Below are positions 39,238-63,991 of a DNA stretch of 64,000 bases, in pieces (position 1 is the first letter of the stretch; each line of letters starts with the position of its first letter). A model generated the notes under the pieces. The model was given only the letters and a program-made list of their open reading frames with translations, did not search any database and was not told where the DNA came from. This DNA comes from an uncultured Desulfobacteraceae bacterium (lineage in GTDB: Bacteria > Desulfobacterota > Desulfobacteria > Desulfobacterales > UBA11574): contig CAZQAF010000005.1 in assembly GCA_964591175.1 (NCBI GenBank), positions 18,256 through 82,255 of the forward strand, given 5' to 3'. Position numbers and translations under genes: made by a program.

Positions 39238-39248
39238 CAGTTTGCCTA

Positions 39249-41432: not shown

Positions 41433-41433
41433 G

Positions 41434-44997: not shown

Positions 44998-45199
44998 GCA
45001 ATGAGTTCCGTTATTCGAGCGCATGGTTTCGCGCCCTCGGTTAAGGTCACGGGCATTTTGAGACCTTTGCAAAACGCCCCTTTTTGCCCAATTTCTACGT
45101 CAGGCTCAAATTTTAATCCTCAAAATACTCAATGTATTCCTGCGGTTAAAATTATCGCCTTCCTTGAACTTGAACAAAAATGAGCATTTTTCAAAGGTC

Positions 45200-47235: not shown

Positions 47236-47307
47236 GGCAACTCCTTCCAAAGGTATTTCAGCGCCAATCGGAATAAAATTCTATTCTGCGAGAGAAGAGA
47301 ATCAAGA

Positions 47308-48747
47308 TCAACCGGAGGTTACAATGCCGTTTATTCTGCTTAACAGATCCTCGGATTTGGACGCAACCGTGTGTTCTGATAAAATGCGTTGGGTTTTTGC
47401 ATTGCAGCGTTGATACAGATCATTGGCACCGTCATTTATCCAGGCGTCATATCGAGATCGATCCAACAGGTTCGGAAGAAAGAGAGAGTGCATAAAATTC
47501 TCAAAGGTATGGTCATCCATCAAAAAAATAGAACCGGGCCCGCCGCAGGCAACCCGTTCGATGGCATCAATGGCCAATGTATTGTCATTGACGGGTATGC
47601 CGCCGGTGAAAAATCGGCTCATGGCGATCAGCTCATCGGCCATGGTGACCATTTCCAGAGAAGATGTGTACCCGTATTCCAAAAAACCGACATCGTGAAT
47701 CAGGTTCGCTCTGGAAAGCAGGGCGGTAATAATCGAAAACATGGCCTCGGCGCCTGCCTGGGCATCCATTGTCTTGGCGTCCGAGGCGCCTGCAAAGGCC
47801 CAAATCGGCAGTCCGTAAATTTCGTCGCGCATATCGGCAAGGGCCGCCTGGGTAAGACTCCATTCGGGACTACCGTAACAAACGATGCTCGACTTCATGT
47901 CCATGGCGCTGACATTCGGTCCGAATAAAAACGGGGATCCTTTTCCCGCCATTTGATGCACCACCAGTCCCACAAGATTTTCGGCAATTCCCAGCGCCAA
48001 CGCCCCGGCCAGCGTGACCGGTGCACCACCGCCGGCGTTTGAGCCCGAAGGAAAACAGATCGGGATTTGTTTCTGGGCGCAAAAAATTAATTTTTCCATC
48101 ACATTTTCAGGAAAGCGCAGCGGGCTGATGGCTTCGGAATAGTTTAAGATAAACGGTTTTCTTTGAAAGTTGTCTTCACCACCGGCCACCGCACAGGCAA
48201 TCTCATAGATTTTAGCAATATCTTTGCCGCTGTCGGCGATGAAAACAATGGGTTTGCCGGTCTGTTTAACCATTTCGGCAAAAACATGCACATATATCGA
48301 TTCCACGGGCACATCTTCCGGATTGGCCATGGACATGGCAAAGTCGATATTTTTCAGTCCGTCCACCAGTTTGGCGAAATTGGTGACATCAGCCAATACG
48401 GTTCGTCGGCGCTGACCGGTTTTCAGGTCAAGTGTAAACGTGGCATCGGATCCGGTACCATAAAAAGCCTGTTCGTCTCTCAGCGACATGGCTTTTTCCC
48501 CGGTCTGGTCAAACAGGGTGATCTGTCGGGGAGCGGAGCGAATAGCGTCTTCGGCCATAAAAGCGGGCATCCGGATCCTTCCGTCGCTGGCGACCCGACA
48601 ACCGGCATCGGAAAGCATTTCCATGGCGCCGGCATGTTCCATTTTAAATCCGGTTTTTTCAAGAATTTCCAGGGCAGCCGTATGGATGGCCATGGCCTGT
48701 TCGCGGTTCAAGACCTTCAGTCGAGGTTGAAACGTGGGAATTTCCAT
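47308..48747 (-). CDS. MttB-superfamily methyltransferase, non-pyrrolysine (paralogue 2)
   Basis: Start re-set to the ATG at 48747 behind AAGGAGGA, which removes the overlap with the corrinoid gene. Uninterrupted 479 aa. Blocks AGASDAKTMDAQAG and LAIDAIERVACGGPGSIF. Confidence 0.88.
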   Translation of the reverse strand: MEIPTFQPRLKVLNREQAMAIHTAALEILEKTGFKMEHAGAMEMLSDAGCRVASDGRIRMPAFMAEDAIRSAPRQITLFDQTGEKAMSLRDEQAFYGTGSDATFTLDLKTGQRRRTVLADVTNFAKLVDGLKNIDFAMSMANPEDVPVESIYVHVFAEMVKQTGKPIVFIADSGKDIAKIYEIACAVAGGEDNFQRKPFILNYSEAISPLRFPENVMEKLIFCAQKQIPICFPSGSNAGGGAPVTLAGALALGIAENLVGLVVHQMAGKGSPFLFGPNVSAMDMKSSIVCYGSPEWSLTQAALADMRDEIYGLPIWAFAGASDAKTMDAQAGAEAMFSIITALLSRANLIHDVGFLEYGYTSSLEMVTMADELIAMSRFFTGGIPVNDNTLAIDAIERVACGGPGSIFLMDDHTFENFMHSLFLPNLLDRSRYDAWINDGANDLYQRCNAKTQRILSEHTVASKSEDLLSRINGIVTSG

Positions 48748-48787
48748 GGAATCCTCCTTGGTCTTTGGATTTGGATTATTTGGGTGT

Positions 48788-49426
48788 TCAGCTCGTGCCG
48801 ACCAGTTTTTTGGCCTCAATTACGGCTGAACCCGCATCAGGGGCATACACATCGGCCTTGATATCCTCGGCAAACTTTGAGGTTACCGGTGCGCCGCCGA
48901 TCATGACTCTGACCGTGTTTCTGATTTTGGCGCGCTGCAACGCCTCAATGGTTTCTTTCATGCTCGGCATGGTGGTAGACAGCAATGCCGACATCGCCAC
49001 GATATCCGGTTCTATCTCCTGCGCCTTTTTCACAAACTGGTCTGCCGAAACATCCACGCCCAAATCAGTGATGGCAAATCCGGCCCCTTCCAGCATCATG
49101 GCAACCAGATTTTTACCGATATCATGAAGGTCGCGGTGAACCGTCCCGATTAAAACTTTACCTTTGGGGACAAGATCACCTTCCAGAAAAAAAGGTTTCA
49201 GCAGTTTCATGCATTCCTGCATGGCCTTGGCCGAACGCAGCATCTGGGGAACAAACAATGCACCCTTTGCGAATTTTTCGCCGACCTCGTCCATTGCAGC
49301 GATCAGGCCGTCATTTAGAATACTTTTAACCTTGAGACCGTCATCAATGGCCTTTTGGGTTTGAGCAACGGCACCTTCAACATTCCCTTTATTTATATCC
49401 TGTTTCAAATTGTCTATAATGGTCAT
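48788..49426 (-). CDS. Corrinoid (B12-binding) methyl-carrier protein 1
   Basis: 212 aa. B12-binding motif GTVHRDLHDIGKNLV (DxHxxG), plus MSALLSTTM and IGGAP. Confidence 0.9.
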   Translation of the reverse strand: MTIIDNLKQDINKGNVEGAVAQTQKAIDDGLKVKSILNDGLIAAMDEVGEKFAKGALFVPQMLRSAKAMQECMKLLKPFFLEGDLVPKGKVLIGTVHRDLHDIGKNLVAMMLEGAGFAITDLGVDVSADQFVKKAQEIEPDIVAMSALLSTTMPSMKETIEALQRAKIRNTVRVMIGGAPVTSKFAEDIKADVYAPDAGSAVIEAKKLVGTS

Positions 49427-49472
49427 GATTGTCTCCCTTGCACTATGAGTTGGGGATTGACGCCCAGGGAAG

Positions 49473-50270
49473 TTACAGATTCAGGCAACCTCTTTGAAAG
49501 GCGTCGATATAGTTTTCACAGTATTCATCACGTCCCAGAAGCATTTCCGTCGAGAGCAGGGTTGCCATCAGCGATGGTTCGGTCGGGTCTAGAATTGCGG
49601 CGGAGAGTCCCTGAAACATGCATAAGGACAAAAAAGTGCTGTTGATCAAACGGCGTGCCGGAAGACCAAAAGAAACATTGGACAGGCCGCAAATGGTGTT
49701 GACGCCGGGAAAATCCATCATGAACGTTCTTATGACATCGAAGACGACATGCCCCGCATGCGGATCAACGGAAACAGGCTGAACCAGCGGATCAACAAAG
49801 ATGTTTTCCAGTACAACCCCCTCGGATGTTAATTTTTCGATCAGTTCAGCACCGGCCTTGACTCTGTCTTCAACAGTAACGGGCATGGCTGTTTGAGCCA
49901 TACACAGCGCCACGATCCGGCAAGGCTGGGACGTTACAACGGGCAGGAGGGCATCGAAACGATCTTTTTCCAATGAAATCGAATTGATCATCGGCACCCC
50001 CCGGTGGTGCTTGATCGCTTCGGCCAGCGCTTTAGGATTGGGACTGTCCAGGCACAGGGGAAGATCAATGGCATTTTGAACCGTCTCCACCAGCCAGCAA
50101 AGACATTCGGTTTCTTGATCGACAAAGGTCCCGGCATTGACGTCAATATAATGAGCGCCGGCATCGGCCTGGCTTTTTGCGATTTGGCCGATGAATACGG
50201 CATCTTTATTTTCAACCGCTTCAGCAATCCGTCTTCGACTGGTGTTAATCTTTTCGCCGACGATAAGCAT
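49473..50270 (-). CDS. Methylcorrinoid:tetrahydrofolate methyltransferase (pterin-binding, MtgA/MtrH-like) 1
   Basis: Start re-set to the ATG at 50270 (MLIVGEKINTSRRRI). YIDVNAG and a GLSNVSFGLP pterin-binding barrel. Confidence 0.85.
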   Translation of the reverse strand: MLIVGEKINTSRRRIAEAVENKDAVFIGQIAKSQADAGAHYIDVNAGTFVDQETECLCWLVETVQNAIDLPLCLDSPNPKALAEAIKHHRGVPMINSISLEKDRFDALLPVVTSQPCRIVALCMAQTAMPVTVEDRVKAGAELIEKLTSEGVVLENIFVDPLVQPVSVDPHAGHVVFDVIRTFMMDFPGVNTICGLSNVSFGLPARRLINSTFLSLCMFQGLSAAILDPTEPSLMATLLSTEMLLGRDEYCENYIDAFQRGCLNL

Positions 50271-50318
50271 ACCAGACCCCTTTTTCGTCAAAGCAATATT
50301 GAATTAAATGATTTCAGA

Positions 50319-50804
50319 CTACCATACCAACGTCTTATAAATCCATCCTTTGTCTCCGTCTGCATGCTGCACATGTATCCACTTGCCTTTTCGGCTTAGA
50401 ATTTTAAACGCAACGCCTTTTTCAGCCTTAAATACAATTGGGTAGTTGGTGCCGGGACCCGAGCGGATATTGCAATCTTCTTTAATGGTAATCACCGCCG
50501 GTATTTTACGAACCAGAGAACTGTATATCCATCCCTCATCTCCTTCAAAATCGACAAAGCGAATCCAGGAACCGACTTTTTTAATCACTTTTATGGGATA
50601 ATATTTGTTGACTTTCCAAATGATATCATAGTTGCTTCCGGGTCCTGAACGGATATTCGCATCAGAGACTGAAACGGTAAGGCGCTCCGATGCAAATGCG
50701 ACATTCGATAAGTTAATGAAAAGGAATACCGCAATGACCGATACATAGGAAAGAGGGCGAAATATTTTCAAAAGATATCGTCTGTCCTGAGTTTTCATAA
50801 TCAT
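50319..50804 (-). CDS. Secreted protein with two bacterial SH3 domains
   Basis: Start at ATG 50804 or 50798 (MIMKTQ.. / MKTQ..). Signal-like segment YVSVIAVFLFINLSNVAFA. Two repeats NIRSGPG(S/T)NY...G(S/K)WI...GD(E/K)GWIY. Confidence 0.72.
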   Translation of the reverse strand: MIMKTQDRRYLLKIFRPLSYVSVIAVFLFINLSNVAFASERLTVSVSDANIRSGPGSNYDIIWKVNKYYPIKVIKKVGSWIRFVDFEGDEGWIYSSLVRKIPAVITIKEDCNIRSGPGTNYPIVFKAEKGVAFKILSRKGKWIHVQHADGDKGWIYKTLVW

Positions 50805-50829
50805 TTCTCCGAAAACTGTTTTGAATGGT

Positions 50830-51165
50830 TCACCGTGTAACAGAAAACAAATTGTTTTCCCAAAAGCCAATGAGAGCCAAGTCTGTCGGATGCGTACCGA
50901 AATAAGAACCTTCAGGAGAAATATCTTCGAGAATATCAAAGATCTCTTGAAAGAGGATTTCTTTTTTGCGCTTATAAGTCTTATCGGTATTCTCCAGCTT
51001 TTCAATTTGATGTATTTTTTGTTCCACTTCGATTAGCTTTTCGGAAGTCTCTTGATCGAGGGCGATTGAGTGCAAAAAAGCAAGGCAGTCTTCGATCAGA
51101 TCGACAACGTTAAGGGTTGTGTTTTGACTGATCGTATAGATTCTGTATTCACTTCCCAGTTTCAT
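50830..51165 (-). CDS. Hypothetical 111-aa acidic protein
   Basis: ATG behind AGAGGA. No recognisable motif. Sits within the co-directional gene string. Confidence 0.5.
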   Translation of the reverse strand: MKLGSEYRIYTISQNTTLNVVDLIEDCLAFLHSIALDQETSEKLIEVEQKIHQIEKLENTDKTYKRKKEILFQEIFDILEDISPEGSYFGTHPTDLALIGFWENNLFSVTR

Positions 51166-51176
51166 TTTATCCTCTA

Positions 51177-51416
51177 TTAAAAGTAATATAGCGTCTCTTT
51201 GCTTCTTATCATAGGATAATCCGCCTGTGCCGTTTTTAACGCTTCATCGCTGAGAGTCTGTTCAAAATATGAAGGGAGAATATCGGCGGAGCCGGAACCT
51301 TGAGAGAATTCCTGTTTTACGCGCCATGGGATCGCATCCGGCAGATACTGTTCATACTTAAGACCTGAATCTTGTATGAAAAATAATGATAATATAATAA
51401 AAAGCAAAAAATTCAA
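51177..51416 (-). CDS. Hypothetical 79-aa protein with N-terminal hydrophobic segment
   Basis: TTG start 6 nt after the metK stop. NFLLFIILSLFFI looks like a signal or anchor. Weak support. Confidence 0.35.
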   Translation of the reverse strand: MNFLLFIILSLFFIQDSGLKYEQYLPDAIPWRVKQEFSQGSGSADILPSYFEQTLSDEALKTAQADYPMIRSKETLYYF

Positions 51417-51422
51417 GTCGAA

Positions 51423-52592
51423 TTACCCCCCTGTCTTCTCATTCAATGATGCGGCCATATCGGTTTTTTCCCAGGTAAACTCTGGTTCGTTGCGACCGAA
51501 ATGCCCGTATGCTGAAGTTTTGCGATATATCGGCCGCAACAGATCGAGATAGTCGATGATGGCGGCCGGACGCAAATCAAAGGTCTCCAAGATACCTTTT
51601 CTCACTTTGTTTTCCGGAACCACACCGGTTCCCATAAGATCGACCATTACAGATACAGGTTCGGCAACGCCGATGGCATAGGCGATTTGCACTTCGCATT
51701 TTTTGGCAAAGCCGGCCGCCACGATATTTTTGGCCACATGTCTTGCCATATACGACGCGCTCCGATCAACCTTTGAAGGATCCTTTCCGGAAAAACACCC
51801 GCCGCCGTGGCTGCCTTGCCCGCCATAGGTGTCGACAATAATTTTCCGTCCGGTAACGCCGCAATCTCCCATAGGTCCGCCGATCACGAACCGGCCAGTC
51901 GGATTGATTAAATATCGGGTATCGCCATCCACCATTTCCTGGGGGATCACCTTTTTAATTACTTCCTCGATGATCGTTTCTTGCAGGTCTTCATACGAAA
52001 CATCCGGTTTGTGCTGTGCGGAGATGACAATGGTATCGACCCGTTTCGGCGTTCCGTTCTCATATTCGATGGTGACCTGAGATTTACCGTCGGGTCTCAG
52101 AAAATCGAGCGTCCCGTTCTTGCGAACCATTGCCAGGCGGCGGGTCAATTTGTGGGCGAATGTAATAGACATCGGCATAAGCTCTGGCGTTTCATCACAG
52201 GCAAAGCCAAACATCAAGCCTTGATCTCCCGCTCCTTGTTCCTTGAAAAGTCCTTGGCCGATATTGACTCCCTGAGCGATATCGGTAGATTGTTGGTCAA
52301 TGCTTGTAATAACCGAGCAGGTCTGCCAGTCAAACCCCATCCGGGATGAATTATAACCGATATCTCGTATGGTTTCACGGACCTTTTCCGGGATATCGAC
52401 ATAGCAGTCGGTCGTAATTTCGCCGGCGACCATGGCCAAACCGGTTGTTACCAAGGTTTCGCAGGCGACCCTGCTGCTTTTATCTTTTGCAATCATTGCA
52501 TCCAGAATTGAATCTGATATGGCATCGGCGACCTTGTCGGGATGTCCTTCCGTAACGGATTCGGATGTAAAAAAGTATTGTTTGTTTCCCAT
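51423..52592 (-). CDS. metK: S-adenosylmethionine synthetase
   Basis: 389 aa. [31 protein letters not shown] and [16 protein letters not shown] motifs. Confidence 0.97.
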
Positions 52593-52647
52593 TGAGTTCT
52601 CCTAAAATTGAATTTTTTGATCGAAAAGCAGGGTTTTCGGTCAAACA

Positions 52648-54147
52648 CTAAATCGGTCGCTGCGACCAGCGGCCGGTATTTGAAAAAATAATATCCGGAT
52701 TTTCAAATACTTCCATCAAAAGACGGTGATAATGACATTCTTCGGCTGATCTGAGGTGGGTTTCGGGAAACCTCGAGCAATAATTTTGCATCTCTGCTTC
52801 TCCCATGATACCCGTCAGGACGCATTCAAGCATATCTACCGTACCGCTGCCTTCATCAAACTGCTCTTTTTCCCTCCATGTGATCTCAGGGGGTAAAAGG
52901 TCTTCAAACGCTTTTCTCAAAATCCATTTTTCTATGGGCGGCGATCCCATGATTTTCATTTCCGGCGGGATTATCTGCCCCAATCGAATCATCGCAAGAT
53001 CCAGAAACGGCACGCGTCCTTCGATGGCATGGGCCATGGTCATTCGATCGACCCGTTGAAGGTTTATATTATGTAACGACGTGACTGACCGGCGTAATTC
53101 CTGGTGCAAAAACTCCTGGTTTTCTATGGATTTATAATAGCCGTACCCTCCGAAGAGCTCATCGGCGCCTTCACCGGTGAGTATCACCTTGACATAATCA
53201 GCAGCCAGGCGGGAAGTAAAATAACAGGGAATGGCGCTTCGCACCAAATCCTGATCAAAGGATTCGAGATAATATATGATTTCCGGCAGTTTTTTTCTGA
53301 CTTCCTGTTCGGTGAGGATATATTCGTGATGAATGGTGTCGAGATGGTTGGAGACCAAGCGGGCAGCCGCGAGATCTCTGCTGCCTTCGACACCGACCGA
53401 AAACGTGTGAAGCCGATCGATATGTTTTCTGGCTATCGCGGCAATGATACTGCTGTCCAAACCACCGGACAAAAACGCCCCCAGAGGGACGTCGCTCATC
53501 AGACGTTTGACCACAGCCTCTTCAAGGGTTTTTCTGATTTTTTCAATATAATCTTTCACCGGGGCTTTCCGGCTTAAAATCTCCGGAACCGAGTAAAAGG
53601 TCGTAAATCCGCGAGCAGAATGGAAAAAAGTTCCCGGCGGAAATTCACGTACGCTGTCACAGCCTGCGGGAAAGGCTTTGAGTTCGGAAGCGAAAATCAG
53701 GGCGTCATTTATTTCGCCAAGATAAAGGGGTTTAATACCGATGGGATCTCGAGCCGCGTAAAAGTCGGCGGCATCGGCGATGGCAAATGCGTACATGCCG
53801 TCCAAATGTTCGACCATGGATGTACCGTGGTCTTCGTAAAGGTGAACGATGGCCTCTGTATCGCTGGTGGTATAGAACTGATGGCGTTTGGAAAGCTCGG
53901 AACGTAAATGCGGAAAATTATAGATTTCTCCATTGGCGATCACGGCAATATTTTTCGATTCATTGTAAATGGGCTGATTGCCGCCCTCCGGGTCCATGAT
54001 GCTCAACCGCCGATGTCCCAAAACTCCCGGACCTTCTGACGAAACAAACTTGCCTTCTGCATCCGGTCCCCTGTGGCGCACCAGCATCATCATCTGTTTG
54101 ACAAGGGCCACATCAGCGTCACCCCATATCCCTGTAATTCCGCACAT
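52648..54147 (-). CDS. Asparagine synthetase B-family glutamine-dependent amidotransferase
   Basis: N-terminal nucleophile MCGITGIWG (Ntn GATase) and PP-loop FLSGGLDSSIIAA. 499 aa. Confidence 0.88.
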   Translation of the reverse strand: MCGITGIWGDADVALVKQMMMLVRHRGPDAEGKFVSSEGPGVLGHRRLSIMDPEGGNQPIYNESKNIAVIANGEIYNFPHLRSELSKRHQFYTTSDTEAIVHLYEDHGTSMVEHLDGMYAFAIADAADFYAARDPIGIKPLYLGEINDALIFASELKAFPAGCDSVREFPPGTFFHSARGFTTFYSVPEILSRKAPVKDYIEKIRKTLEEAVVKRLMSDVPLGAFLSGGLDSSIIAAIARKHIDRLHTFSVGVEGSRDLAAARLVSNHLDTIHHEYILTEQEVRKKLPEIIYYLESFDQDLVRSAIPCYFTSRLAADYVKVILTGEGADELFGGYGYYKSIENQEFLHQELRRSVTSLHNINLQRVDRMTMAHAIEGRVPFLDLAMIRLGQIIPPEMKIMGSPPIEKWILRKAFEDLLPPEITWREKEQFDEGSGTVDMLECVLTGIMGEAEMQNYCSRFPETHLRSAEECHYHRLLMEVFENPDIIFSNTGRWSQRPI

Positions 54148-54168
54148 GTGTTTCGTCCTTTTACTGCT

Positions 54169-55431
54169 CTATTTTCGTATTTCGAACATACCGACAAAGC
54201 CGTGTCCCATACCATCTCCGCGCTGGAGTTCCATTTCCAGCTTCCTCAACGAAAAACCAAGCACCGACTCGATAACATTGGCGCGAACATCCCCCCAGTT
54301 CAACCAGCCCACGCCTTCTATGACCTTGTACATGGTTTCCATGGCTTCTTTTAAAGGTTTCGGGTAATAGGGAAGAATCTCGGGAACGTTTGAAAACCTG
54401 CCTGTTTCACAATCGTAGTTTCCGAGCAGACTCATGGTATATTCGATGAGTGCGTTGCACGACATGAAAAACATTTCATAGAAGTTGTTGATGTGATCAA
54501 AACCAGGGCGGGGCACGTAGTCAACCAAGAGGCTCTCCAGATCCGTCCGAAGATAGTTTTCGAAGAGCGCATTGACCGGACCGCGCAATTTGGGAGCGTA
54601 TTTGTTGTAGTCGCCGGTATCCAAGTGCCGTCCGATGAAAATCGAACGATCGAAAAAGGTCAACGGCTTAATTTCAACGCCGGCTTCCTTGGATGCCTGT
54701 TCGATGATGTTCATCACTTCGTCCCGGCATACCAGTTTCAGCGCAAAAGAAGCAATATCGGCCGTGGCCCTTTCTTCTTCCGGGTAAATGTAAGAGATTC
54801 GGTAGTCCATAAAGTATTCCCGACTCGCCGGATGATGCCACAAATCCTGCCATTCAACGGAGTATCGACCCAGCCAGTCGCCCATGAAAAGGGCGTGATC
54901 GGGCGCATGCCGGCAGATATCTGCAACGATCTTGATGCACTGTTCATCGGTAAAGTGGGAAAGGGTCCCAAATGACGTAAAATAAAAATCAAAAGGCGCC
55001 TCATCCTTCATGATTTCAGCGGGAAGCCCGTCCGACATGTCTCCCTGAATAAAACGCGATTTCGGATTGGCGCCGTAGTCGCTTTCGGCCTGACGAAGAA
55101 GGTCTTCGTTGATGTCCAATCCGACATATTCCTTGAGCATGTCATCGGTGAGGGCAACGGTGATATATTCATAAATTCCGGGATCTTTTGTGGTAACTCC
55201 CATAATGAGATCAAAGCCGTCTCCGCTGCCGCATCCCAGGTCTATAATACGGATTCGTTCCAGATTCCTTTTTTTTCGTTCAACCAGTTCATTCAACGCA
55301 GGACGCATGAAGATACTGGTAATCTGATCTTCCCAGAACCGTCTGACATTGTCATATTTTCCCAGCAAACCGGATGCTCTGTCGTATTTCCCGGTATGAG
55401 CGGCCTGGGAGTATGCTTTTATTTCCGCCAT
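54169..55431 (-). CDS. Class I SAM-dependent methyltransferase with large uncharacterised C-terminal region
   Basis: Motif I RIIDLGCGSGDG, post-I VGLDINEDL, motif II FDFYFTSFGTLSHF. About 220 further residues carry no motif I recognise. AAGGA RBS. Confidence 0.8.
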   Translation of the reverse strand: MAEIKAYSQAAHTGKYDRASGLLGKYDNVRRFWEDQITSIFMRPALNELVERKKRNLERIRIIDLGCGSGDGFDLIMGVTTKDPGIYEYITVALTDDMLKEYVGLDINEDLLRQAESDYGANPKSRFIQGDMSDGLPAEIMKDEAPFDFYFTSFGTLSHFTDEQCIKIVADICRHAPDHALFMGDWLGRYSVEWQDLWHHPASREYFMDYRISYIYPEEERATADIASFALKLVCRDEVMNIIEQASKEAGVEIKPLTFFDRSIFIGRHLDTGDYNKYAPKLRGPVNALFENYLRTDLESLLVDYVPRPGFDHINNFYEMFFMSCNALIEYTMSLLGNYDCETGRFSNVPEILPYYPKPLKEAMETMYKVIEGVGWLNWGDVRANVIESVLGFSLRKLEMELQRGDGMGHGFVGMFEIRK

Positions 55432-55502
55432 GAGTTTATCCTTTTCTTTTTTGCACAGATAACCGCAAATGGACGCAAATGAACAAAAATATTATTATTT
55501 CA

Positions 55503-55525
55503 ATTCGTGTTAGTTTGTGTTCATC
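55503..55525. repeat. Dispersed intergenic motif ATTCGTGTT(A/C)GTTTGTG..., copy 2
   Basis: ATTCGTGTTAGTTTGTGTTCATC matches ATTCGTGTTCGTTTGTGGTTATC at 21274-21296 in 20 of 23 positions (hand alignment). Both lie just downstream of a minus-strand stop codon. Confidence 0.5.
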
Positions 55526-55545
55526 CGGGGTTTTTATTTTTAAAA

Positions 55546-56229
55546 TCAGGCACTCAGCGTTTTTAATGCATCGATGGCCTCGAAGGCATCTTTGCAATGG
55601 GCATCGGCACCGATCTGTTCGGCAAAGGATTTGGATGTGGGAGCGCCTCCGATGAAGACGGTCACCTGATGATCGAGCCCTTCTGTTTTAAGGGTATTGA
55701 TCACCTCCTTCATTTCCCACATGGTGGTTGTCAACAGGGCCGAGAGCCCCAGGAAAGATGCCTGGTTTTCTTTAACAGCCTGTACAATTGCGCTGGTCGG
55801 CACATCCGCTCCCAGGTCGATAACCTCGTATCCGGCACCTTTGATCATGATCGATACGATGTTCTTCCCGATATCGTGAAGGTCGCCGGCCACCGTTGCA
55901 ATAATGAACTTTCCTTTACTTTTTACGCCGGCTTTTAAAAGGTGAGGGCTCATGATGTCCATGGCAACCCCGACACATTCGGCCGAGGCCAGCATGTCCG
56001 GGATGAGGTATTCATCGCGCTCAAATTTTTTGCCCACAATCTCCATTGCGCGGGTTAATCCGTCGATGACGATGTCTTTGGGGTCTATGCCGGCACCAAG
56101 GGCTTCTTTGACCAGCTCGGTGACTGCAGGCTGTCCTTCGTAACCTTCGTCAAACCCTTCATCTTCAGCCTCGACACGACCTTGCACAATATTAAATGCA
56201 ATTTTCTCAATAAGCGTTTGATTGTCCAT
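55546..56229 (-). CDS. Corrinoid (B12-binding) methyl-carrier protein 2
   Basis: 227 aa. ATVAGDLHDIGKNIV (DxHxxG), LSALLTTTM and IGGAP. Confidence 0.9.
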   Translation of the reverse strand: MDNQTLIEKIAFNIVQGRVEAEDEGFDEGYEGQPAVTELVKEALGAGIDPKDIVIDGLTRAMEIVGKKFERDEYLIPDMLASAECVGVAMDIMSPHLLKAGVKSKGKFIIATVAGDLHDIGKNIVSIMIKGAGYEVIDLGADVPTSAIVQAVKENQASFLGLSALLTTTMWEMKEVINTLKTEGLDHQVTVFIGGAPTSKSFAEQIGADAHCKDAFEAIDALKTLSA

Positions 56230-56273: not shown

Positions 56274-57812
56274 TCATCCGGTCTGTTTCAAGCTCGGCAA
56301 AATTCCCGGGACTTCCTTGAAAATTTGTTCCACTATTTCGGGTTTCATGTGCACGGCCGGCGCTTGTTCGAGTCGGTCCATGTAATCGAGAGCGTTTTCC
56401 AGGACTTTGTCTTCCAATCCTTTGGCCTCAAAACGATAAGGATCGGAAACATCTCCGGCGTGCATGGCCTTTCGCACATGGCGCGCATATAGCCGGTAGG
56501 GCGAGGACATGACTTTTTTCACCGTCTTGAGTGTATCTTCTATGGTGTCGGGATCGATTTTAGGCTGACGCAGGCAGTGTTTGATCTTGCCGATCTGTTC
56601 GTTGTCCAGAACCGCTTGGACCGGGCAGAAACTGTTGGTGCGATCCAAAAGGCCAAAGGCATAGTGGATATACTGCGCCCCGCTCATGGCCATGTAAAAA
56701 TGCGTAAACAGTTTTTCGAATGTGGCCTGCATCCCCGGTGCTTTGGCATCCCCCACGCCGGCGGTGGAATAACACGGGATATTGTAAAAACGGGCCAATT
56801 GCACACAATCGATATTATACTGATTGAACTCCGGACATCCGTATAAATCGTGCAGATCATCCATGCGGGCCCGCACGGGTACGCTCCCATAGAGTACCGG
56901 AAATCCCGGTTCGATGAGCTGGGTGAGGGTGATACCGGCTAAAATTTCAGCATTGATCTGAGCCACCATTCCGGCTTCTTGTATGGGAGCCGACGATCCC
57001 CCCTGGGGAGACGAAGAGATCACCAGGGGAAGGCCGGTTTCGACGATGCGAAAAACCTTCTCGGCGGTATCATCCACGATTTGTAAAGGGCTTTTGAATA
57101 TACAGGCGATGAATGAAAACAGCGGATTTTTCCGGAGCGCCTCCGGGCTGCCGGTAATGATCTCACCCATTCGCACGACATCTTTTAAAGCATCTACCGT
57201 GGTCAATCCCGCTTGCACGTGTTTGGTCATATTGTTCAGGCTGGCAAAAAACTTGTTCACATCATGATTGGCGGGGCTGATTTCAGGATCCTGTATGTTC
57301 AACGGGCGGATGAAAAAGTCCAGGTGTTCTAATCTTTCGCACAGCCTGGCGGCCCGGCTGAGCAAAGATGTATTCCCCCGCAGCTCTTCAAATCGGGGAA
57401 CCTTGCATTTGACGCCGTTGTCGTCAACGCTCACAAATTCCTGCATATGCGTTTCTATCCAGATATTGGCCTCGGAACCGGAGCCAAAATAAACGCGGGG
57501 CACTTCCGCGTCGAGCAGCAATCGATTTTCAGGAACCCTGGCGCCCAGAACAAATCGTGAAGGGGCGTGAGACACTGCTTCTTTGATGAGTCCTGCGGGG
57601 AAGCTGACCCGCCAACATGTGCTATGTTTGTCTTTTTCTTCCCAAACTTTGGCCCCATGTGTTTTAAAAAGCCCGGCAGCTCTTTCGTTGTAACACCAGA
57701 CGCCGGGATCTTCCAAAATGTTCAGGGAAGCTCGATCCAGCCATTTTACCTGTTCGCTGTCGAGCCGCTTATAAGGTTTGACCAGAACGCCTTCTCGAAA
57801 ACTGTCTATCAC
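56274..57812 (-). CDS. MttB-superfamily methyltransferase, non-pyrrolysine (paralogue 3)
   Basis: Uninterrupted 512 aa. Blocks AGVGDAKAPGMQAT and the N-terminal ...EQVKWLDRASLNILEDPGV. Confidence 0.88.
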   Translation of the reverse strand: MIDSFREGVLVKPYKRLDSEQVKWLDRASLNILEDPGVWCYNERAAGLFKTHGAKVWEEKDKHSTCWRVSFPAGLIKEAVSHAPSRFVLGARVPENRLLLDAEVPRVYFGSGSEANIWIETHMQEFVSVDDNGVKCKVPRFEELRGNTSLLSRAARLCERLEHLDFFIRPLNIQDPEISPANHDVNKFFASLNNMTKHVQAGLTTVDALKDVVRMGEIITGSPEALRKNPLFSFIACIFKSPLQIVDDTAEKVFRIVETGLPLVISSSPQGGSSAPIQEAGMVAQINAEILAGITLTQLIEPGFPVLYGSVPVRARMDDLHDLYGCPEFNQYNIDCVQLARFYNIPCYSTAGVGDAKAPGMQATFEKLFTHFYMAMSGAQYIHYAFGLLDRTNSFCPVQAVLDNEQIGKIKHCLRQPKIDPDTIEDTLKTVKKVMSSPYRLYARHVRKAMHAGDVSDPYRFEAKGLEDKVLENALDYMDRLEQAPAVHMKPEIVEQIFKEVPGILPSLKQTG

Positions 57813-57846: not shown

Positions 57847-58644
57847 TTATTTTTGCCGAAACGTCCGGGTATAGCGCCGGCAGTGACGATCTTTTCCTGC
57901 CAGGACCTCGGCGGTTCTCACAGCCCCTATAATCTGTTGATCCAGCGGATCCATGATGGCTGCATCCAAACCTGCAAAAATCGCCATATGCAAAAATGCC
58001 GAATTGAGCCCGGCCCTGTTCGGAAGCCCGTAAGAAACATTGGAAAGCCCCATGACCGTCCGTGCACCGGAAAAGTTTTCCTTGATTTGTGTCAGCGTGT
58101 CCAAGGTGACGCGCCCCTGCCGGATGTCTGTACTGACCGGCAGCACCAGGGGGTCGAAAAAAAGGTTGTCCAGCGAGAATCCGTGTTTTTGACAGGCTTT
58201 GGCGATCTTTTCGCAGGCTGACAGACGGTCTTTGACGGTTTTGGGTATTCCTTGCTCGTCCATGGCCAGGGCAATTAATGCCGTGTTATGGTGAACGGCA
58301 AGGGGGATGATCTTTTTTAGATTGTCTTCTTCTGCTTTGACGGAATTGATCATGGCGGATCTATCGCCGTTCATATCCAATGCCGTTTCCAGTACAGCCC
58401 GGTCGGCGCTGTCAAAACAAAGGGGAGCGTCCACCGATCTTTGAATGGTTTCAACAGCCCATTTCATGGCTGAAATTTCATCTTCCCTGGATCCCACGCC
58501 TATAGCAACGTTGACATCGATATAGTCAGCCCCGGCATTGGCTTGCTTTTGGGCCAGTGCCGTCAGATTTCGGGCGTCTCTGTTTTGAATCATGGTGTTA
58601 ACCAAAGGGATGGTGGCATTGATTTTTTCACCGACGATAATCAT
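57847..58644 (-). CDS. Methylcorrinoid:tetrahydrofolate methyltransferase (pterin-binding) 2
   Basis: Start re-set to the ATG at 58644 (MIIVGEKINATIP) behind AAGGAAA. YIDVNVA and GLSNVSYGLP. Confidence 0.85.
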   Translation of the reverse strand: MIIVGEKINATIPLVNTMIQNRDARNLTALAQKQANAGADYIDVNVAIGVGSREDEISAMKWAVETIQRSVDAPLCFDSADRAVLETALDMNGDRSAMINSVKAEEDNLKKIIPLAVHHNTALIALAMDEQGIPKTVKDRLSACEKIAKACQKHGFSLDNLFFDPLVLPVSTDIRQGRVTLDTLTQIKENFSGARTVMGLSNVSYGLPNRAGLNSAFLHMAIFAGLDAAIMDPLDQQIIGAVRTAEVLAGKDRHCRRYTRTFRQK

Positions 58645-58666
58645 GGATTTCCTTTTTCTACGCTTA

Positions 58667-60130
58667 TTACTCAAAAATGAATGATTGGACTCCCGGGATC
58701 TCTTGTTTAATGCGTTCCCTGACATCTTCAGGAACAATCGATTGGGGCGGTTTTGTCAAAATGTCCCGCACTTTTTCGGCGGCTCGCTGACGAATATCTT
58801 TTGCGCCGTCCTCCTGCCAGCGATCACGGTTTTCCCTGTCGCTGAGCAGTGGTTTATAAAGTTCCGAACGCATATGACGTCGGGTATGGCGGGAGGAGAT
58901 AAAATGCCCGCCGGGTCCTGCTTTTTTTATCAGATCAAATGCCAGGGTCTCGTCGTTCACCTTGATGCCGTCTACCGCCCGCATGATCATGCCGATAATT
59001 TCGTTGTCTATGACCAGCTTGTCATAGGACGCCGTCATGCAGAATTCCAAAAATCCTGCAGCATCATGGATGAAGTTACCGCCGGCCAGGGCAACCATCA
59101 GATTGGTAATGGCCGATTCATATCCTGCCTGGGCATCGTTGACTTTGGCGTCGGACATGCCCGCGGTGACATAGATCGGCAATTTATAAAATCGGGCCAT
59201 CTGGGATGCGGCGGCGTTCATCAATCCCATTTCAACCGCGCCCGAAAGATATTTCATATTTCGCAGATCGGTAATGGACGAAATACAGCCATAAAGGGTC
59301 GGGGTTCCGGGGCTGGTCATTTGAGCCAGCATAACGCCCGCCAAAGAATCCACATTCTGTATCACCAGATTCCCTGCCAGCGTCATGGGACTGGTGGCCC
59401 CGCACAGCGGTTCCGAGGGCACCACTACCGGAATTCGATGTCTGGCCGCTTCCATGGTGAGCCCGGCATAGGTCTCGTCCAGTGTCAGGGGACTGATAAC
59501 GCAGGTGACCATGGAAATAAACGGTCGCTCCCTGAGCTTATCTGGAGATCCGGCAATGAGTTCCGCCATTTTAATCACGTTTCGCACCCCTTCAGGGGTG
59601 TAAACGCCACCGATCACGTGTTTTCGGGTATGATTCAGGGCTGCGCCAAAACGATTGACATCCACATCTTTTTTGGAGAGATCATTGGGATACACGTTGA
59701 GCATGTAAAAGTGGATGTTGTCCAGTACATCCACCAGACGAGCCATATCGACGATGTCTTCGAGTATTGAACTTCGCGCATCTTGGCTTCCTGACTCCTG
59801 TACGTTCAAAGCCGTGCCGCCGGTTCCGAAATATACTTTATTTCCGCCGATTTCACAGTCCAGATCTCCGTTTTCTTCACGACCGCAGAGAAATACCGTA
59901 GAAGGCGCCTTCTGTATCCACTTTGTCACCATTTCCGGCGGGATTTTGACCACCCGGTCGGATTTATCGACGCTTGCGCCGTTTTTTTCAAAAAGTGCCA
60001 GCGCTTCCGGAAATTTTACCCTCACGCCCACTTCGGCGAATACCTTGAGACTGGTTTCATGAATCTTAACCATGTCCTTTTCTGAGATGACTTTATATTG
60101 TCCTCCGGGTAAACCTTTTCTTGTTTTCAT
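58667..60130 (-). CDS. MttB-superfamily methyltransferase, non-pyrrolysine (paralogue 4)
   Basis: Uninterrupted 487 aa. Blocks AGMSDAKVNDAQAG and LAFDLIKKAGPGGHF. By eye, most similar to paralogue 1. Confidence 0.88.
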   Translation of the reverse strand: MKTRKGLPGGQYKVISEKDMVKIHETSLKVFAEVGVRVKFPEALALFEKNGASVDKSDRVVKIPPEMVTKWIQKAPSTVFLCGREENGDLDCEIGGNKVYFGTGGTALNVQESGSQDARSSILEDIVDMARLVDVLDNIHFYMLNVYPNDLSKKDVDVNRFGAALNHTRKHVIGGVYTPEGVRNVIKMAELIAGSPDKLRERPFISMVTCVISPLTLDETYAGLTMEAARHRIPVVVPSEPLCGATSPMTLAGNLVIQNVDSLAGVMLAQMTSPGTPTLYGCISSITDLRNMKYLSGAVEMGLMNAAASQMARFYKLPIYVTAGMSDAKVNDAQAGYESAITNLMVALAGGNFIHDAAGFLEFCMTASYDKLVIDNEIIGMIMRAVDGIKVNDETLAFDLIKKAGPGGHFISSRHTRRHMRSELYKPLLSDRENRDRWQEDGAKDIRQRAAEKVRDILTKPPQSIVPEDVRERIKQEIPGVQSFIFE

Positions 60131-60176: not shown

Positions 60177-60848
60177 CTATGTTCTTCGTGCAGAACAATT
60201 CCGGCGGTTGCATTCAGAACATGGATTATATGATTGTTCCCTTGGGTTAGAATCAGCCGGTGTTATTCCGAAAACACCGGAGATGGATTTACGGGGCTTC
60301 ATAAAGCAGGAATTTGTGAGTTCGACCTCCAACTCGTTTGAATCGAAGAGACCGAACAATTTTTTTTGATCGGTAATCGGCCAGTCGCAATATCCAGGGC
60401 TAAAACAAAGCGTTATTTGTTTGTTTTGGTCTTTATATACATCCTTCATATGCTGATGAAACATTCCCACCATGTTGTCTGCGGCCGCAGATGCCATGGC
60501 ATCGAGGATATATGCTTGCGCCAAGTGCTTTTCTTCCATAAGCTGATTGATCTTGTCTTCAATGCTGTCTCCCAATGTGGCGATATAACATGTAATTTCA
60601 TCACAATGCTTTAACGTTCTTGAAAGTTTGTTGCTTTTAAATTCCTGACCTTCTTCAAGGAGAACTTCCCCTTTTTCCACCGAATCGATCCCCATGTTTC
60701 GGTGGCACAGATTCGGTTCGATAAGTTTTTCAAACATGGGTTTCATTCGTTTTATTTTCGAGCGGGTTGACCGGGGAATAGTATCAAATTCGTCACCGCC
60801 CAAAAGTTTGGCCAGGGTATCCTTTTCTATAATTGGTTTAATTTCCAT
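60177..60848 (-). CDS. Methionine synthase (MetH) activation-domain-like protein
   Basis: 223 aa. FSPGYCDWPITDQKKLF ... MKPRKSISGVFGI resembles the SAM-binding reactivation domain of MetH. Cys-rich C-terminus CSECNRRNC. Confidence 0.7.
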   Translation of the reverse strand: MEIKPIIEKDTLAKLLGGDEFDTIPRSTRSKIKRMKPMFEKLIEPNLCHRNMGIDSVEKGEVLLEEGQEFKSNKLSRTLKHCDEITCYIATLGDSIEDKINQLMEEKHLAQAYILDAMASAAADNMVGMFHQHMKDVYKDQNKQITLCFSPGYCDWPITDQKKLFGLFDSNELEVELTNSCFMKPRKSISGVFGITPADSNPREQSYNPCSECNRRNCSARRT

Positions 60849-61641: not shown

Positions 61642-62385
61642 ATGATCAAACTAACCCGTGTTTTTAAAACATTTGACGGCGGCCAATCATATGCGGTCAA
61701 AGATCTTTCTCTGAATGTCGACAGGGGAGAGACGCTCGTACTTTTGGGCTCATCGGGTTGCGGTAAAACCACCACACTAAAAATGGTCAATCGTCTGATA
61801 GAACCGACCAAAGGAATCATTGAAGTTTCCGGAAAGAATGTCTTGGATTACAATGCCGTAAGTTTGCGTCGTCAAATCGGTTATGTATTTCAGGGGATCG
61901 GCCTGTTTCCCCATATGACGATTGAACAAAATGTTGAAATCGTACCGCGGCTCCTCGGGTGGTCGACTCGTTCACGACAAGAACGCATTGAGGAACTATT
62001 GGATCTTGTCGGGCTGCCGGCCGGGAGTTTTGCCGAAAGGTTCCCCGATGAACTGTCCGGCGGCCAGCAGCAAAGGGTCGGTGTTGCCCGTGCCCTGGCG
62101 GCAAACCCTGCTTATTTGCTCATGGATGAGCCGTTCGGCGCTTTGGACGCCCTTACGCGTGAAGCGCTTCAACAGGAATTGTTGAGCTTGAAAAATCAGC
62201 TTAAAAAAACCATTGTTTTTGTCACCCATGACCTTCATGAAGCAATGCTCCTTGGAGACCGTATTGCCATTCTGCACGATGGTGGGCTGGAACAGATTGG
62301 GACGAAAGAGGATATCTTGAATACGCCGGCAACCCAATTCGTAAAAGATTTGTTTTCGATAAGGCGGTCGGGGACCTGGAAGTAA
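61642..62385 (+). CDS. ABC transporter ATP-binding protein, osmoprotectant (OpuB/OpuC) type, without CBS domains
   Basis: Walker A GSSGCGKTT, signature LSGGQQQRVGVARAL and Walker B LLMDEPFGALD. At 247 aa there is no room for the C-terminal CBS pair. Confidence 0.9.
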   Translation: MIKLTRVFKTFDGGQSYAVKDLSLNVDRGETLVLLGSSGCGKTTTLKMVNRLIEPTKGIIEVSGKNVLDYNAVSLRRQIGYVFQGIGLFPHMTIEQNVEIVPRLLGWSTRSRQERIEELLDLVGLPAGSFAERFPDELSGGQQQRVGVARALAANPAYLLMDEPFGALDALTREALQQELLSLKNQLKKTIVFVTHDLHEAMLLGDRIAILHDGGLEQIGTKEDILNTPATQFVKDLFSIRRSGTWK

Positions 62386-62398
62386 AGAGGTGCATTGA

Positions 62399-63991
62399 AT
62401 GAGCATTGACGCTTTGATTGCGTACGTCCTCCAACGATTGCCCGAACTCTGGCTTCGAACCGGGGAACATCTTATGTTGACGGGATGCTCTACGCTGGCC
62501 GCCATGTTTATCGGGATTCCCGTGGGGATCTTTATCTATCGGACCAAATGGCTGCGCGGACCGGTAATGGGCGTCATTGGCATCCTTCAAACAATTCCGA
62601 GTCTGGCCATGCTGGTCTTTTTGCTGGCACTGCTCAAAGAAATCGGTGTCATACCTGCCCTAATCGCCCTCACGCTCTATGCATTGCTCCCGATCGCCAG
62701 GAACACGCTTACGGGACTTGAAGAAGTTTCCGCTGAAGTAATGGAAGCCGCGGAGGGGATCGGCATGCAGGAATACCAGCAGCTCATGATGGTCAGAATC
62801 CCTTTGGCTGCGCCGGTGATTGCGGCAGGCATTCGCACTGCGGCAGTGGTCGGCGTGGGGATTGCCACCCTTTCAGCGTTCATCGGCGCCGGCGGACTGG
62901 GCCAGTTCATTAATCGCGGCCTGGCCCTGGCCAACACAAAGCTCATTCTTCTCGGTGCAATTCCCGCCGCACTTCTCGCCTTGATGGTTGACTTTTCCAT
63001 CGGTGCCTTTGAATGGGCGCTCCGTTCGGAACGAAAAAAGGATAAAAAAAGATCGGCAAAGTCATTCATGCGGCGGCCGGCCTTAATGCTGCCGGTTGCT
63101 TTAGTCTTAGTCGGAATCGTTACCAACTTTACGAAACCCGGATGGATTTCCGGCCCCCAAGCATCACTGGAAAACGGGCATGAAATTGTCAGGATCGGAT
63201 CCAAGAATTTTACGGAACAGCTCATCTTAGGGGAAATGATGGCCCGGTTGATTGAGGCAAAGACGGATTTAATGGTTCAACGCCGGTTTAACCTCGGCGG
63301 CACCATGATCTGTCACGGGGCGTTGGTCAACGGAGAGATCGATCTTTATGCCGAATATACGGGGACCGCGTTGACCGCGATTCTAAAGCATGCGGTGATG
63401 ACCGATCCCGAAAAAGCCCTGCGGTATGTAACCAAAACATACCATCAGCGGTTTGATTTGCAATGGCTCAAACCCTTTGGGTTCAACAATACTTACGCCA
63501 TTACCGTCCGAAAAGCCGATGCTTTGCAAAACAGATGGAGCAAAATATCCGACCTCGAAAAATCCGCGGATGTGCTTATTGCGGGTTTCACTGCTGAATT
63601 TTCGGAAAGGCCTGATGGTTACCCAGGGCTCCGCCGAATCTATCACCTGCATTTTGGCGATGTTCTGGATTTTGATCCGTCTTTGATGTATGAAGCCATT
63701 CGTAACAAAAAAGTGGATGTGATCTGTGCGTTTGCCACCGACGGCCGTATTGCAGCATATCATTTAAAACCGCTCAAAGACGACCGTAAATTTTTCCCGC
63801 CCTACTATGCGGCTCCGGTGATCAGAGAAGAAATACTGAAGGTTCATCCGGAACTCGGCGATGTTTTATCGCTTTTGGGAGGACGCATCGATGATGCTGA
63901 GATGCAGCATTTGAATTTTGAGGTAGACGGGAAAAAAAGAAGCATCGCCGAGGTGGTGGAAGAATTTTTAAAAGCGAAGAAACTACTTTAA
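62399..63991 (+). CDS. Fused ABC permease / substrate-binding protein for quaternary amines (OpuBB-OpuBC type)
   Basis: N-terminal polytopic permease half, then a TM linker (LMLPVALVLVGIV). The C-terminal OpuAC-type binding domain begins IGSKNFTEQLILGEMMARLIE. Confidence 0.88.
   Translation: MSIDALIAYVLQRLPELWLRTGEHLMLTGCSTLAAMFIGIPVGIFIYRTKWLRGPVMGVIGILQTIPSLAMLVFLLALLKEIGVIPALIALTLYALLPIARNTLTGLEEVSAEVMEAAEGIGMQEYQQLMMVRIPLAAPVIAAGIRTAAVVGVGIATLSAFIGAGGLGQFINRGLALANTKLILLGAIPAALLALMVDFSIGAFEWALRSERKKDKKRSAKSFMRRPALMLPVALVLVGIVTNFTKPGWISGPQASLENGHEIVRIGSKNFTEQLILGEMMARLIEAKTDLMVQRRFNLGGTMICHGALVNGEIDLYAEYTGTALTAILKHAVMTDPEKALRYVTKTYHQRFDLQWLKPFGFNNTYAITVRKADALQNRWSKISDLEKSADVLIAGFTAEFSERPDGYPGLRRIYHLHFGDVLDFDPSLMYEAIRNKKVDVICAFATDGRIAAYHLKPLKDDRKFFPPYYAAPVIREEILKVHPELGDVLSLLGGRIDDAEMQHLNFEVDGKKRSIAEVVEEFLKAKKLL

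Follow-up and report, generated by a model that had tools for sequence, protein, structure and literature searches.

What might a methyltransferase, an asparagine synthetase-like amidotransferase and an S-adenosylmethionine (SAM) synthetase produce together when their genes lie inside an island of demethylation genes? This question is raised by a 64,000-nucleotide stretch of DNA from an uncultured Desulfobacteraceae bacterium (contig CAZQAF010000005.1, positions 18,256 to 82,255), hereafter the window, whose own numbering is used throughout. On its minus strand, a class I SAM-dependent methyltransferase of 420 aa (MT; 54169..55431), a Cys-type AsnB-family enzyme of 499 aa, predicted to be a glutamine- and ATP-dependent amidotransferase (AsnB; 52648..54147), and a SAM synthetase of 389 aa (MetK; 51423..52592) follow one another with gaps of 21 nt (MT/AsnB) and 55 nt (AsnB/MetK), behind a 114-nt spacer upstream of MT. 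An initial annotation had proposed that this trio makes a methylated and amidated small molecule, linked to a betaine-type importer and to the adjacent demethylases, or else that MetK merely supplies SAM for corrinoid reactivation while the other two genes are passengers. The three open reading frames (ORFs), their lengths and their gaps were reproduced exactly.

The analysis described here points to a somewhat different unit. Its core is MT, an AsnB-family enzyme and an importer, joined in anaerobes by a divergent MttB-family methyltransferase (MttB1) and a corrinoid protein (Corr1), and MetK is facultative. We consider it rather probable, though far from certain, that MT, the Cys-type AsnB and a divergently encoded OpuB/OpuC-type importer form a widespread cassette that makes a small betaine-type N-methylated amino-acid amide; our best guess for the product is an asparagine methylated at N(alpha) ('asparagine betaine') or one of its close analogues. 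The earlier idea of a methylated-amide pathway tied to an importer and to demethylases is thus retained, with the trio replaced as its unit. Linkage of the genes, the fusions, the integrity of catalytic residues, the dedication of the AsnB clade and the type of importer are seen in the sequences; from them we infer the product, its role as an osmolyte, the order of the steps and the substrate of MttB1.

The MT-AsnB pair and its importer

The MT-AsnB pair is real, widely conserved and ancient. AsnB and MT are fused at full length in two metagenomic proteins, P0153 (934 aa) and P0160 (901 aa), and a third, P0246, is a fragment of such a fusion; P0153 retains an intact MCGI N-terminus and PP-loop. 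Outside Desulfobacterota, a Cys-type AsnB is encoded beside MT in all six contexts inspected (6/6), drawn from Cyanobacteria, Planctomycetota, Myxococcota and three metagenomic contigs. Because the two proteins occur as fusions and as neighbours across many phyla, they can be taken to act together. A genome scan with the fusion P0153 itself drew ordinary AsnB genes, which share the FNGEIYNH motif; MT was absent from all 80 loci obtained in this way.

In five of these six contexts, the cluster also includes genes for an ATP-binding cassette (ABC) ATPase, a permease and an OpuAC binding protein. The gene order is AsnB-MT-ABC-518 aa protein in Myxosarcina sp. GI1, AsnB-MT-ABC-permease-OpuAC in Ca. 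Scalindua rubra, and AsnB-MT-ABC-permease/OpuAC in both Labilithrix and the locus L166; at L167 it is MarR-MT-ABC-permease-OpuAC-AsnB. At L165, MT and AsnB are convergent neighbours, and the sole ABC gene there, at the edge of the locus, encodes an ATPase of the CBS type. In the window, the corresponding importer is encoded on the plus strand, divergently from the island, by an ABC ATPase gene (61642..62385; ABC_tran domain) and a gene for a fused permease and OpuAC-type substrate-binding protein of 530 aa (62399..63991; BPD_transp_1 and OpuAC). Its ATPase is 52-70% identical, and its permease/binding protein 36-61% identical, to those of the cassettes in other phyla, the value for MT itself being 35-40%. 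Judged by these identities, the window importer is an orthologue of the cassette importers and part of the same cassette, so that the betaine-type importer noticed at the outset is indeed tied to MT and AsnB.

The binding domain of the importer is closest to OpuBC, OpuCC and EgtUC, which are binders of trimethylammonium compounds (175-256 bits, including OpuBC-derived sensors). Like the OpuB/OpuC/EgtU importers, the window importer has a fused permease + OpuAC architecture; unlike them, it has relatives encoded inside AsnB-MT cassettes of other phyla. The alignment shows conservation of the motifs EYTGT, GFNNTY, AFATDG and FPPYYAAP, which, by sequence-level analogy with the OpuCC/OpuBC structures, may contribute to an aromatic cage for the quaternary ammonium head group.

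An AsnB clade dedicated to the cassette

AsnB comprises the domains GATase_7 and Asn_synthase (Pfam) and exceeds the NCBIfam equivalog cut-offs for asparagine synthase B (586 bits vs 499 for NF006949; 441 vs 267 for TIGR01536), as do its Cys-type cassette homologues at 599-615 bits. Compared with canonical AsnB (E. coli 1CT9; human ASNS 6GQ3), it is alike over nearly the full length, aligning with 1CT9 over residues 18-485 at 346 bits, and it keeps the catalytic residues; it differs in being shorter (499 vs 553 aa), in having an altered pocket and in belonging to a clade that is found almost only beside MT. In the 1CT9 alignment, the glutaminase site is intact (MCGI N-terminus with Cys1, R49, N74, E76 and D98), as is the synthetase site (PP-loop SGGxDS, E348, D351, E352, R387 and K449). 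The Cys nucleophile (MCGI) and PP-loop (SGGLDSS) on which the initial annotation had based its prediction of an active amidotransferase were both found, and the remaining glutaminase and adenylation residues are consistent with that prediction.

The enzyme departs from the canonical one in the aspartate pocket: the Thr-Thr of ETYDVTTIR is replaced by D-L, K376 by Ser and D384 by Asn. The two threonines count as aspartate-pocket residues on the basis of AsnB mutagenesis. All MT-linked AsnBs share the replacement of Thr-Thr by X-Leu and of K376 by S, I, L or C, and position 384 is Asn in the Cys types and Ala in the types that lack the nucleophile ('Ser types'); every one of them keeps the PP-loop, E348, D351, E352, R387 and K449. 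In human ASNS, D400 (equivalent to D384) forms, together with E364, D367 and E368, an acidic pocket for the alpha-amino group of the substrate (PMC6748925). The neutralised, more hydrophobic pocket of the cassette enzymes would fit an N-methylated substrate. Motif comparison with generic AsnBs was uninformative, those enzymes being a different, longer subfamily.

The window enzyme, of what is termed here the 'QDLV' type, belongs to a clade dedicated to the MT cassette. Among the 16 closest AsnB loci (>=61% identity), 12 have MT and three have a Ser-type paralogue at a contig end; the remaining one, L176, has its upstream sequence missing. None of the AsnB loci at <=44% identity has MT. With 15 of its 16 closest relatives beside MT or a Ser-type partner, AsnB is judged not to be a generic housekeeping copy. 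The 64-kb window holds no other AsnB-family gene except a remnant, described below.

An MT family with a C-terminal region of its own

Pfam matches of MT are restricted to generic class I models (Methyltransf_25/31/11) at about residues 45-205, and the motifs listed for it in the initial annotation (IIDLGCGSGDG, VGLDINEDL and FDFYFTSFGTLSHF) were all found. The second half, in which no domain had been recognised, indeed gave no Pfam match and has no counterpart among PDB structures (Foldseek). Neither NCBIfam (no match beyond E=0.005) nor a phmmer search of the PDB (best E=0.007) assigned MT to a family. An AlphaFold2 (AF2) model built on a diverse 70-sequence alignment, in which 45 columns are invariant, reached a predicted local distance difference test score (pLDDT) of 89.8 and a predicted template-modelling score (pTM) of 0.89; it supersedes an earlier AF2 model from 42 sequences at >=70% identity, for which pLDDT was 57 and Foldseek was uninformative. 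Against the PDB, Foldseek matched only the Rossmann core of methyltransferases of ~240 aa, with template-modelling (TM) scores of 0.5-0.6 when normalised to the target (TMt) and at most 0.42 when normalised to the query (TMq). According to the model, MT thus consists of a Rossmann core (about residues 45-260) followed by ~200 C-terminal residues without a solved counterpart.

Searches with Pfam, NCBIfam, phmmer against the PDB, and Foldseek matched MT to no rRNA, tRNA or protein methyltransferase family. The nearest macromolecule-type Pfam match is mRNA_G-N7_MeTrfase (E=0.0018; 17.8 bits vs a cut-off of 26.6 bits), so no curated family places MT among characterised macromolecule-modifying enzymes, a possibility that had been flagged at the outset; of the refuting conditions listed there, none that could be checked was observed. 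Close homologues number 1,388, are 419-420 aa long and share 70-96% identity in Desulfobacterota. Across 1.84 billion cluster representatives, 298 matches at E<=1e-3 were obtained, all full length, and a profile of distant members placed the family in Cyanobacteria, Planctomycetota, Myxococcota, Nitrospirota and Binatia. The metagenomic protein P0182 is a Usp-MT fusion, which, together with the MarR neighbour at L167, hints at stress control.

In another metagenomic protein, P0174 (350 aa, truncated at both ends), the C-terminal end of a B12-binding corrinoid protein runs in frame into the N-terminal part of an MT homologue. Either Corr1 and MT are genuinely fused here, or a stop codon has been lost or the gene call is an artefact.

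Partners of MT in related genomes

Linkage was counted over 80 genome loci holding MT, with denominators below 80 giving the informative loci. An AsnB-family gene lies downstream of MT in 54 of 59 loci, which, like the recurrence of MetK described below, is far more than chance would give: a Cys-less paralogue only in 38, a Cys-type enzyme only in seven and both in nine. The Cys-less paralogue begins with MSGF or MAGF and has lost R49, N74, E76 and D98, with the PP-loop and adenylation residues kept. In this respect it resembles Cys-less AsnB homologues such as beta-lactam synthetase, CarA and lasso-peptide cyclases, which have likewise lost Cys and the glutaminase residues and kept the adenylation site; unlike the lasso cyclases (100 bits), it remains nearer to AsnB, scoring 360 bits, below the AsnB cut-off of 499.

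In the window, this usual partner survives only as a pseudogene remnant directly downstream of metK (51180..51356, minus strand), identified by tblastn, translation and DNA alignment and overlooked in the initial annotation. Its 58 codons encode EQYLPDAIPWRVKQEFSQGSGSADILPSYFEQTLSDEALKTAQADYPMIRSKETLYYF, followed by two in-frame stop codons, and match residues 432-490 of the paralogue of locus L008 at 61% identity (tblastn), corresponding to about residues 433-490 of a 512-aa AsnB-family protein of related genomes. DNA alignment with a close relative, L018, whose MT is 92% identical, showed that ~1.3 kb of the paralogue gene has been deleted. Because the Cys-less paralogue, the usual partner of MT in relatives, persists only as this remnant, the MT-AsnB-MetK trio of the window is a lineage-specific state.

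Two loci in which MT has no AsnB-family gene, L055:6793-12177 and L059:7478-11526 (of five such loci), encode a ProA-like aldehyde dehydrogenase, an unannotated protein of 452-464 aa and a DUF362/4Fe-4S protein, L055 having a sodium:solute symporter in addition. This gene set may represent a variant pathway.

MetK lies within 6 kb of MT in only 10 of the 80 loci, in several different arrangements, so the trio as such is not what is conserved, yet this compares with an estimated chance expectation of ~0.24 MetK genes over 80 genomes. In addition, AhcY is encoded beside MT in seven loci and a fused homocysteine S-methyltransferase/methylenetetrahydrofolate reductase (Hcy-MT/MTHFR) in five, with gene orders that differ among Desulfobacterales, Desulfoferrobacter, Desulfurivibrio and Desulfobulbaceae. 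Linkage of metK thus recurs in relatives, together with AhcY and Hcy-MT/MTHFR; the window itself has only MetK among SAM-cycle genes, a protein with all three MetK domains (Pfam) and 597 bits on TIGR01034, best viewed as a facultative methyl-cycle addition to the cassette.

In halophiles, glycine betaine clusters combine GSMT/SDMT with metK and ahcY, as in Methanohalophilus portucalensis (PMC3176816). The cassette resembles these clusters in its class I SAM-dependent, putatively small-molecule methyltransferase, in the recruitment of MetK, AhcY and homocysteine remethylation, and in its betaine-type transporter. SAM-cycle recruitment matches the pattern of these clusters and argues for a stoichiometric rather than a catalytic role of methylation. 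Unlike GSMT/SDMT, MT has no sequence-family match, is structurally similar in the core only (5hij, TMq 0.33), carries ~200 extra C-terminal residues and has an AsnB-family partner, to which it is sometimes fused.

The putative MttB1-Corr1 demethylation module

Directly upstream of the spacer, all on the minus strand, lie the genes for Corr1 (55546..56229; 227 aa; B12-binding and B12-binding_2 domains; MtgC-like, below cut-off), for MttB1 (56274..57812; 512 aa; 183 bits on Pfam MTTB), a divergent member of the MttB family without pyrrolysine (non-Pyl), and for a pterin-binding, MtrH/MtgA-like methyltransferase predicted to act on methyl-corrinoid and tetrahydrofolate (57847..58737; Pterin_bind), which is conserved upstream of MttB1. 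Linkage of MT to MttB clusters, which the initial annotation had listed as a point to check, turned out to be obligate with MttB1-Corr1. A Corr1-like protein is encoded directly upstream of MT in 70 of 72 informative loci, with a median gap of 36 nt, and an MttB1 orthologue lies upstream in 56 of 58; reciprocally, wherever the locus of an MttB1 orthologue extends far enough downstream (65/65), MT follows on the same strand at a distance of no more than 2.5 kb. This linkage spans Desulfobacterota, Nitrospirota and Lentisphaerota, and the Lentisphaerales locus L181 brings together importer, AsnB, Ser-AsnB, MttB, MttB1 and MT.

MttB1 is the most divergent of the four MttBs of the island (183 bits vs 293-368 on Pfam). 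Its module resembles MtgB-MtgC-MtgA of Desulfitobacterium hafniense (PMC13080624) in combining a non-Pyl MttB, a corrinoid protein and a pterin-binding methyltransferase, with RACo-type activation nearby. Unlike MtgB, MttB1 is always followed by MT (65/65) and lacks three of the four glycine-betaine contacts: R312 corresponds to Y348, H348 to Y384 and F356 to T392, and the Y97 region is unaligned. The first two replacements leave it without either carboxylate-binding residue of MtgB, and on these active-site residues its assignment as a glycine-betaine enzyme was rejected. From its sequence and linkage, MttB1 is a candidate demethylase for the cassette product.

An oxygen-dependent counterpart can be proposed from the aerobic locus L165 (L165:3234-7818), where MT-AsnB is flanked by genes for a GbcA-like Rieske oxygenase (391 bits, below cut-off), a SolA-like N-methyl-L-amino-acid oxidase (294 bits vs 257) and a double-length glutaminase. 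Such a set could plausibly demethylate and deamidate an N-methylated amino-acid amide.

A proposed pathway

Taken together, these features suggest the following scheme. AsnB would adenylate the side-chain carboxylate of an aspartate-like substrate and amidate it with ammonia channelled from glutamine, and MT would methylate the alpha-amino nitrogen once or several times at the expense of SAM; judging by the changes in the AsnB pocket, methylation may be the first of the two steps. MetK in the window, and AhcY and Hcy-MT/MTHFR in relatives, would sustain the stoichiometric demand for SAM, and the importer would recapture or scavenge the solute. In anaerobes with the Wood-Ljungdahl pathway, MttB1-Corr1-MtrH probably removes the methyl groups and returns them to the tetrahydrofolate pool, a job for which the GbcA-like, SolA-like and glutaminase genes of L165 would be the equivalent in one aerobic locus.

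The scheme has a parallel in the pathway to N-acetylglutaminylglutamine amide (AsnO and Ngg), in which an AsnB paralogue amidates an osmolyte carboxylate to give an uncharged product. Unlike in that system, the window AsnB scores only 275.7 bits against the 570-bit cut-off of TIGR03104, and its partner is a methyltransferase in place of an Ngg-type ligase/acetyltransferase. The cassette would be an uncharacterised variant of a known compatible-solute logic.

Several observations weigh against this interpretation. The Cys-type AsnBs all score as genuine asparagine synthase B and may simply make asparagine. Most Desulfobacterota pair MT with the glutaminase-dead paralogue, and five loci are without any AsnB-family gene. 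With MT starting a median of 36 nt from the Corr1 stop, synthesis and demethylation appear to be co-transcribed, which would be futile unless activity is controlled. Catabolic and uptake-and-convert operons, too, typically include an importer, the window ATPase lacks the CBS domains of some osmoregulated OpuA-type ATPases, and the catabolic set of L165 was seen in a single locus. Finally, no paper was found that describes the cassette or that lists asparagine, aspartate or glutamine betaine among bacterial solutes.

A bolder version of the scheme, which we regard as less likely than not, would make the product a new betaine-type compatible solute, an N-methylated asparagine-like amide present in at least six bacterial phyla, with MttB1 founding an MttB subfamily that demethylates a carboxylate-free amide betaine; the solute would then serve anaerobes with the Wood-Ljungdahl pathway as a private methyl reserve that is made, stored and burned. 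Still more radical would be to see the MttB1-Corr1-MT triad as a methyl shuttle between SAM and corrinoid.

Alternative explanations

The cassette could instead act as a catabolic funnel, in which an imported compound is made by MT and AsnB into a quaternary, uncharged substrate for MttB1, feeding methylotrophy without any osmolyte. This would account well for an importer in the same operon-like cluster, for the tight placement of MT after MttB1-Corr1, for the fact that MttB1 never occurs without MT in the 65 loci, and for the need of non-Pyl MttBs for quaternary amines (PMC13080624). However, SAM and ATP would be spent on a methyl group that is harvested later, leaving no net gain; in Cyanobacteria, Scalindua and Labilithrix the cassette is accompanied by neither an MttB nor any other evident catabolic function downstream; and recruitment of a whole SAM cycle is typical of stoichiometric biosynthesis. 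On balance, such a funnel seems unlikely. Less likely again is a methyl shuttle, whereby the MT-AsnB product would carry methyl groups between the SAM and corrinoid/tetrahydrofolate pools via MttB1-Corr1, or MttB1 running in reverse would supply some of the N-methyl groups from methyl-tetrahydrofolate. The invariant and probably co-transcribed MttB1-Corr1-MT triad would suit this role, a Met_synt_B12-like gene heads the cluster in 44 of 80 loci, and corrinoid systems that couple betaine demethylation to methionine synthesis have a precedent (PMC12478193). MT is nonetheless found without a corrinoid protein in several phyla, and the joining of a corrinoid-protein C-terminus to MT in the P0174 ORF, which would also favour a shuttle, is a single, doubly truncated case that may be a gene-calling artefact.

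Modification of a macromolecule or cofactor has been weighed as well: MT would methylate a protein, RNA or corrinoid, for example in the SAM-dependent reactivation of Corr1, and AsnB would amidate a cell-wall or cofactor carboxylate. Foldseek matches do include Trm9 and cap guanine-N7 methyltransferases, at TM scores similar to those of small-molecule enzymes, and both the weak mRNA_G-N7_MeTrfase match in Pfam and the strong conservation of MT within Desulfobacterota point the same way. Yet MT has no curated family match, it occurs obligately with AsnB and a betaine-type importer where corrinoid proteins are not nearby, and the Met_synt_B12-like and RACo genes already serve corrinoid reactivation; a function of this kind is improbable, and the occurrence of MT with AsnB and importer but without nearby corrinoid genes led to the rejection of MT as a corrinoid reactivation enzyme in particular. 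The least probable explanation is the passenger scenario offered in the initial annotation, extended to an ordinary asparagine synthetase, a housekeeping MetK that perhaps aids SAM-dependent corrinoid reactivation, and an MT unrelated to either. It can draw on equivalog-level scores for AsnB and MetK, on the Met_synt_B12-like protein in the island and on the absence of MetK from 70 of 80 related loci, but is countered by the AsnB-MT fusions, the cassette-dedicated AsnB clade with its common pocket substitutions, and the separate recruitment of MetK, AhcY and Hcy-MT beside MT in differing gene orders (10 MetK genes vs ~0.24 expected). For MT and AsnB the passenger scenario is contradicted by this evidence; an additional role of MetK in corrinoid reactivation is possible.

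The spacer and neighbouring genes

The Corr1-MT spacer (55432..55545, minus strand; 114 nt, against a median of 36 nt in relatives) holds a 10-nt tandem repeat (55464-55483), an 11-nt inverted repeat and a sigma-70-like site. Its designation as a repetitive extragenic palindromic (REP)-like element in the initial annotation is unsupported, as no further copies of the repeat element were found in the window. Promoter- and terminator-like sites, including the sigma-70-like site, did not exceed shuffled expectation, in agreement with the earlier remark that the spacer has no obvious terminator, and Rfam revealed no riboswitch near the trio.

Further methyl-transfer genes surround the cassette. 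A second module on the minus strand (43078-50291) encodes an MtrH-like protein, a corrinoid protein, two more MttBs, a DUF1638 protein and a RACo-type reductive activator, and a short Met_synt_B12-like protein (60177-60848, minus strand), conserved in 44 of 80 related loci, heads the island. Within the ORF of a further MttB, MttB-a (58667-60130), Rfam reported a match of 64 bits to PYLIS_3, the pyrrolysine insertion sequence of mttB (gathering score 38; 59059-59158, minus strand). The MttB-a ORF is uninterrupted and has Met where 7XCL has pyrrolysine in the alignment; the match probably reflects homology of the coding sequence, not a working PYLIS. As listed, with a TTG start, the MtrH-like ORF (57847-58737) overlaps the end of MttB-a by 71 nt, and it matches Pterin_bind from residue 50 onwards; translation probably starts at a site further downstream.

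The interval 50319-51165 (minus strand), which separates the AsnB-paralogue remnant from the second methyl-transfer module, contains a 111-aa ORF without a family match and a gene for a double bacterial-SH3 protein, of which homologues occupy the equivalent site in L035, L046 and L073. Just downstream of the island (36826-42333, minus strand) are genes for a sucrose synthase (803 aa), for a fusion of sucrose-phosphate synthase and phosphatase (733 aa) and for a PfkB kinase, which amount to a second compatible-solute module beside the betaine-related genes.

Implications

If the proposed scheme is correct, the cassette would represent a new pathway of broad phylogenetic distribution, leading to a methylated, nitrogen-rich solute that has so far gone unrecognised. 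An orphan MT family of ~1,400 sequences would gain a function, as would a protein clade that is automatically annotated as 'asparagine synthase B'. Cultured carriers of the cassette include Myxosarcina sp. GI1, Desulfoferrobacter suflitae DRH4, Desulfurivibrio dismutans and Desulfatitalea alkaliphila. Many MttB-family enzymes of marine sulfate reducers are orphans, and the scheme would supply one of them with a concrete candidate substrate; the substrate of MttB1 bears on the cycling of methylated nitrogen compounds in anoxic sediments.

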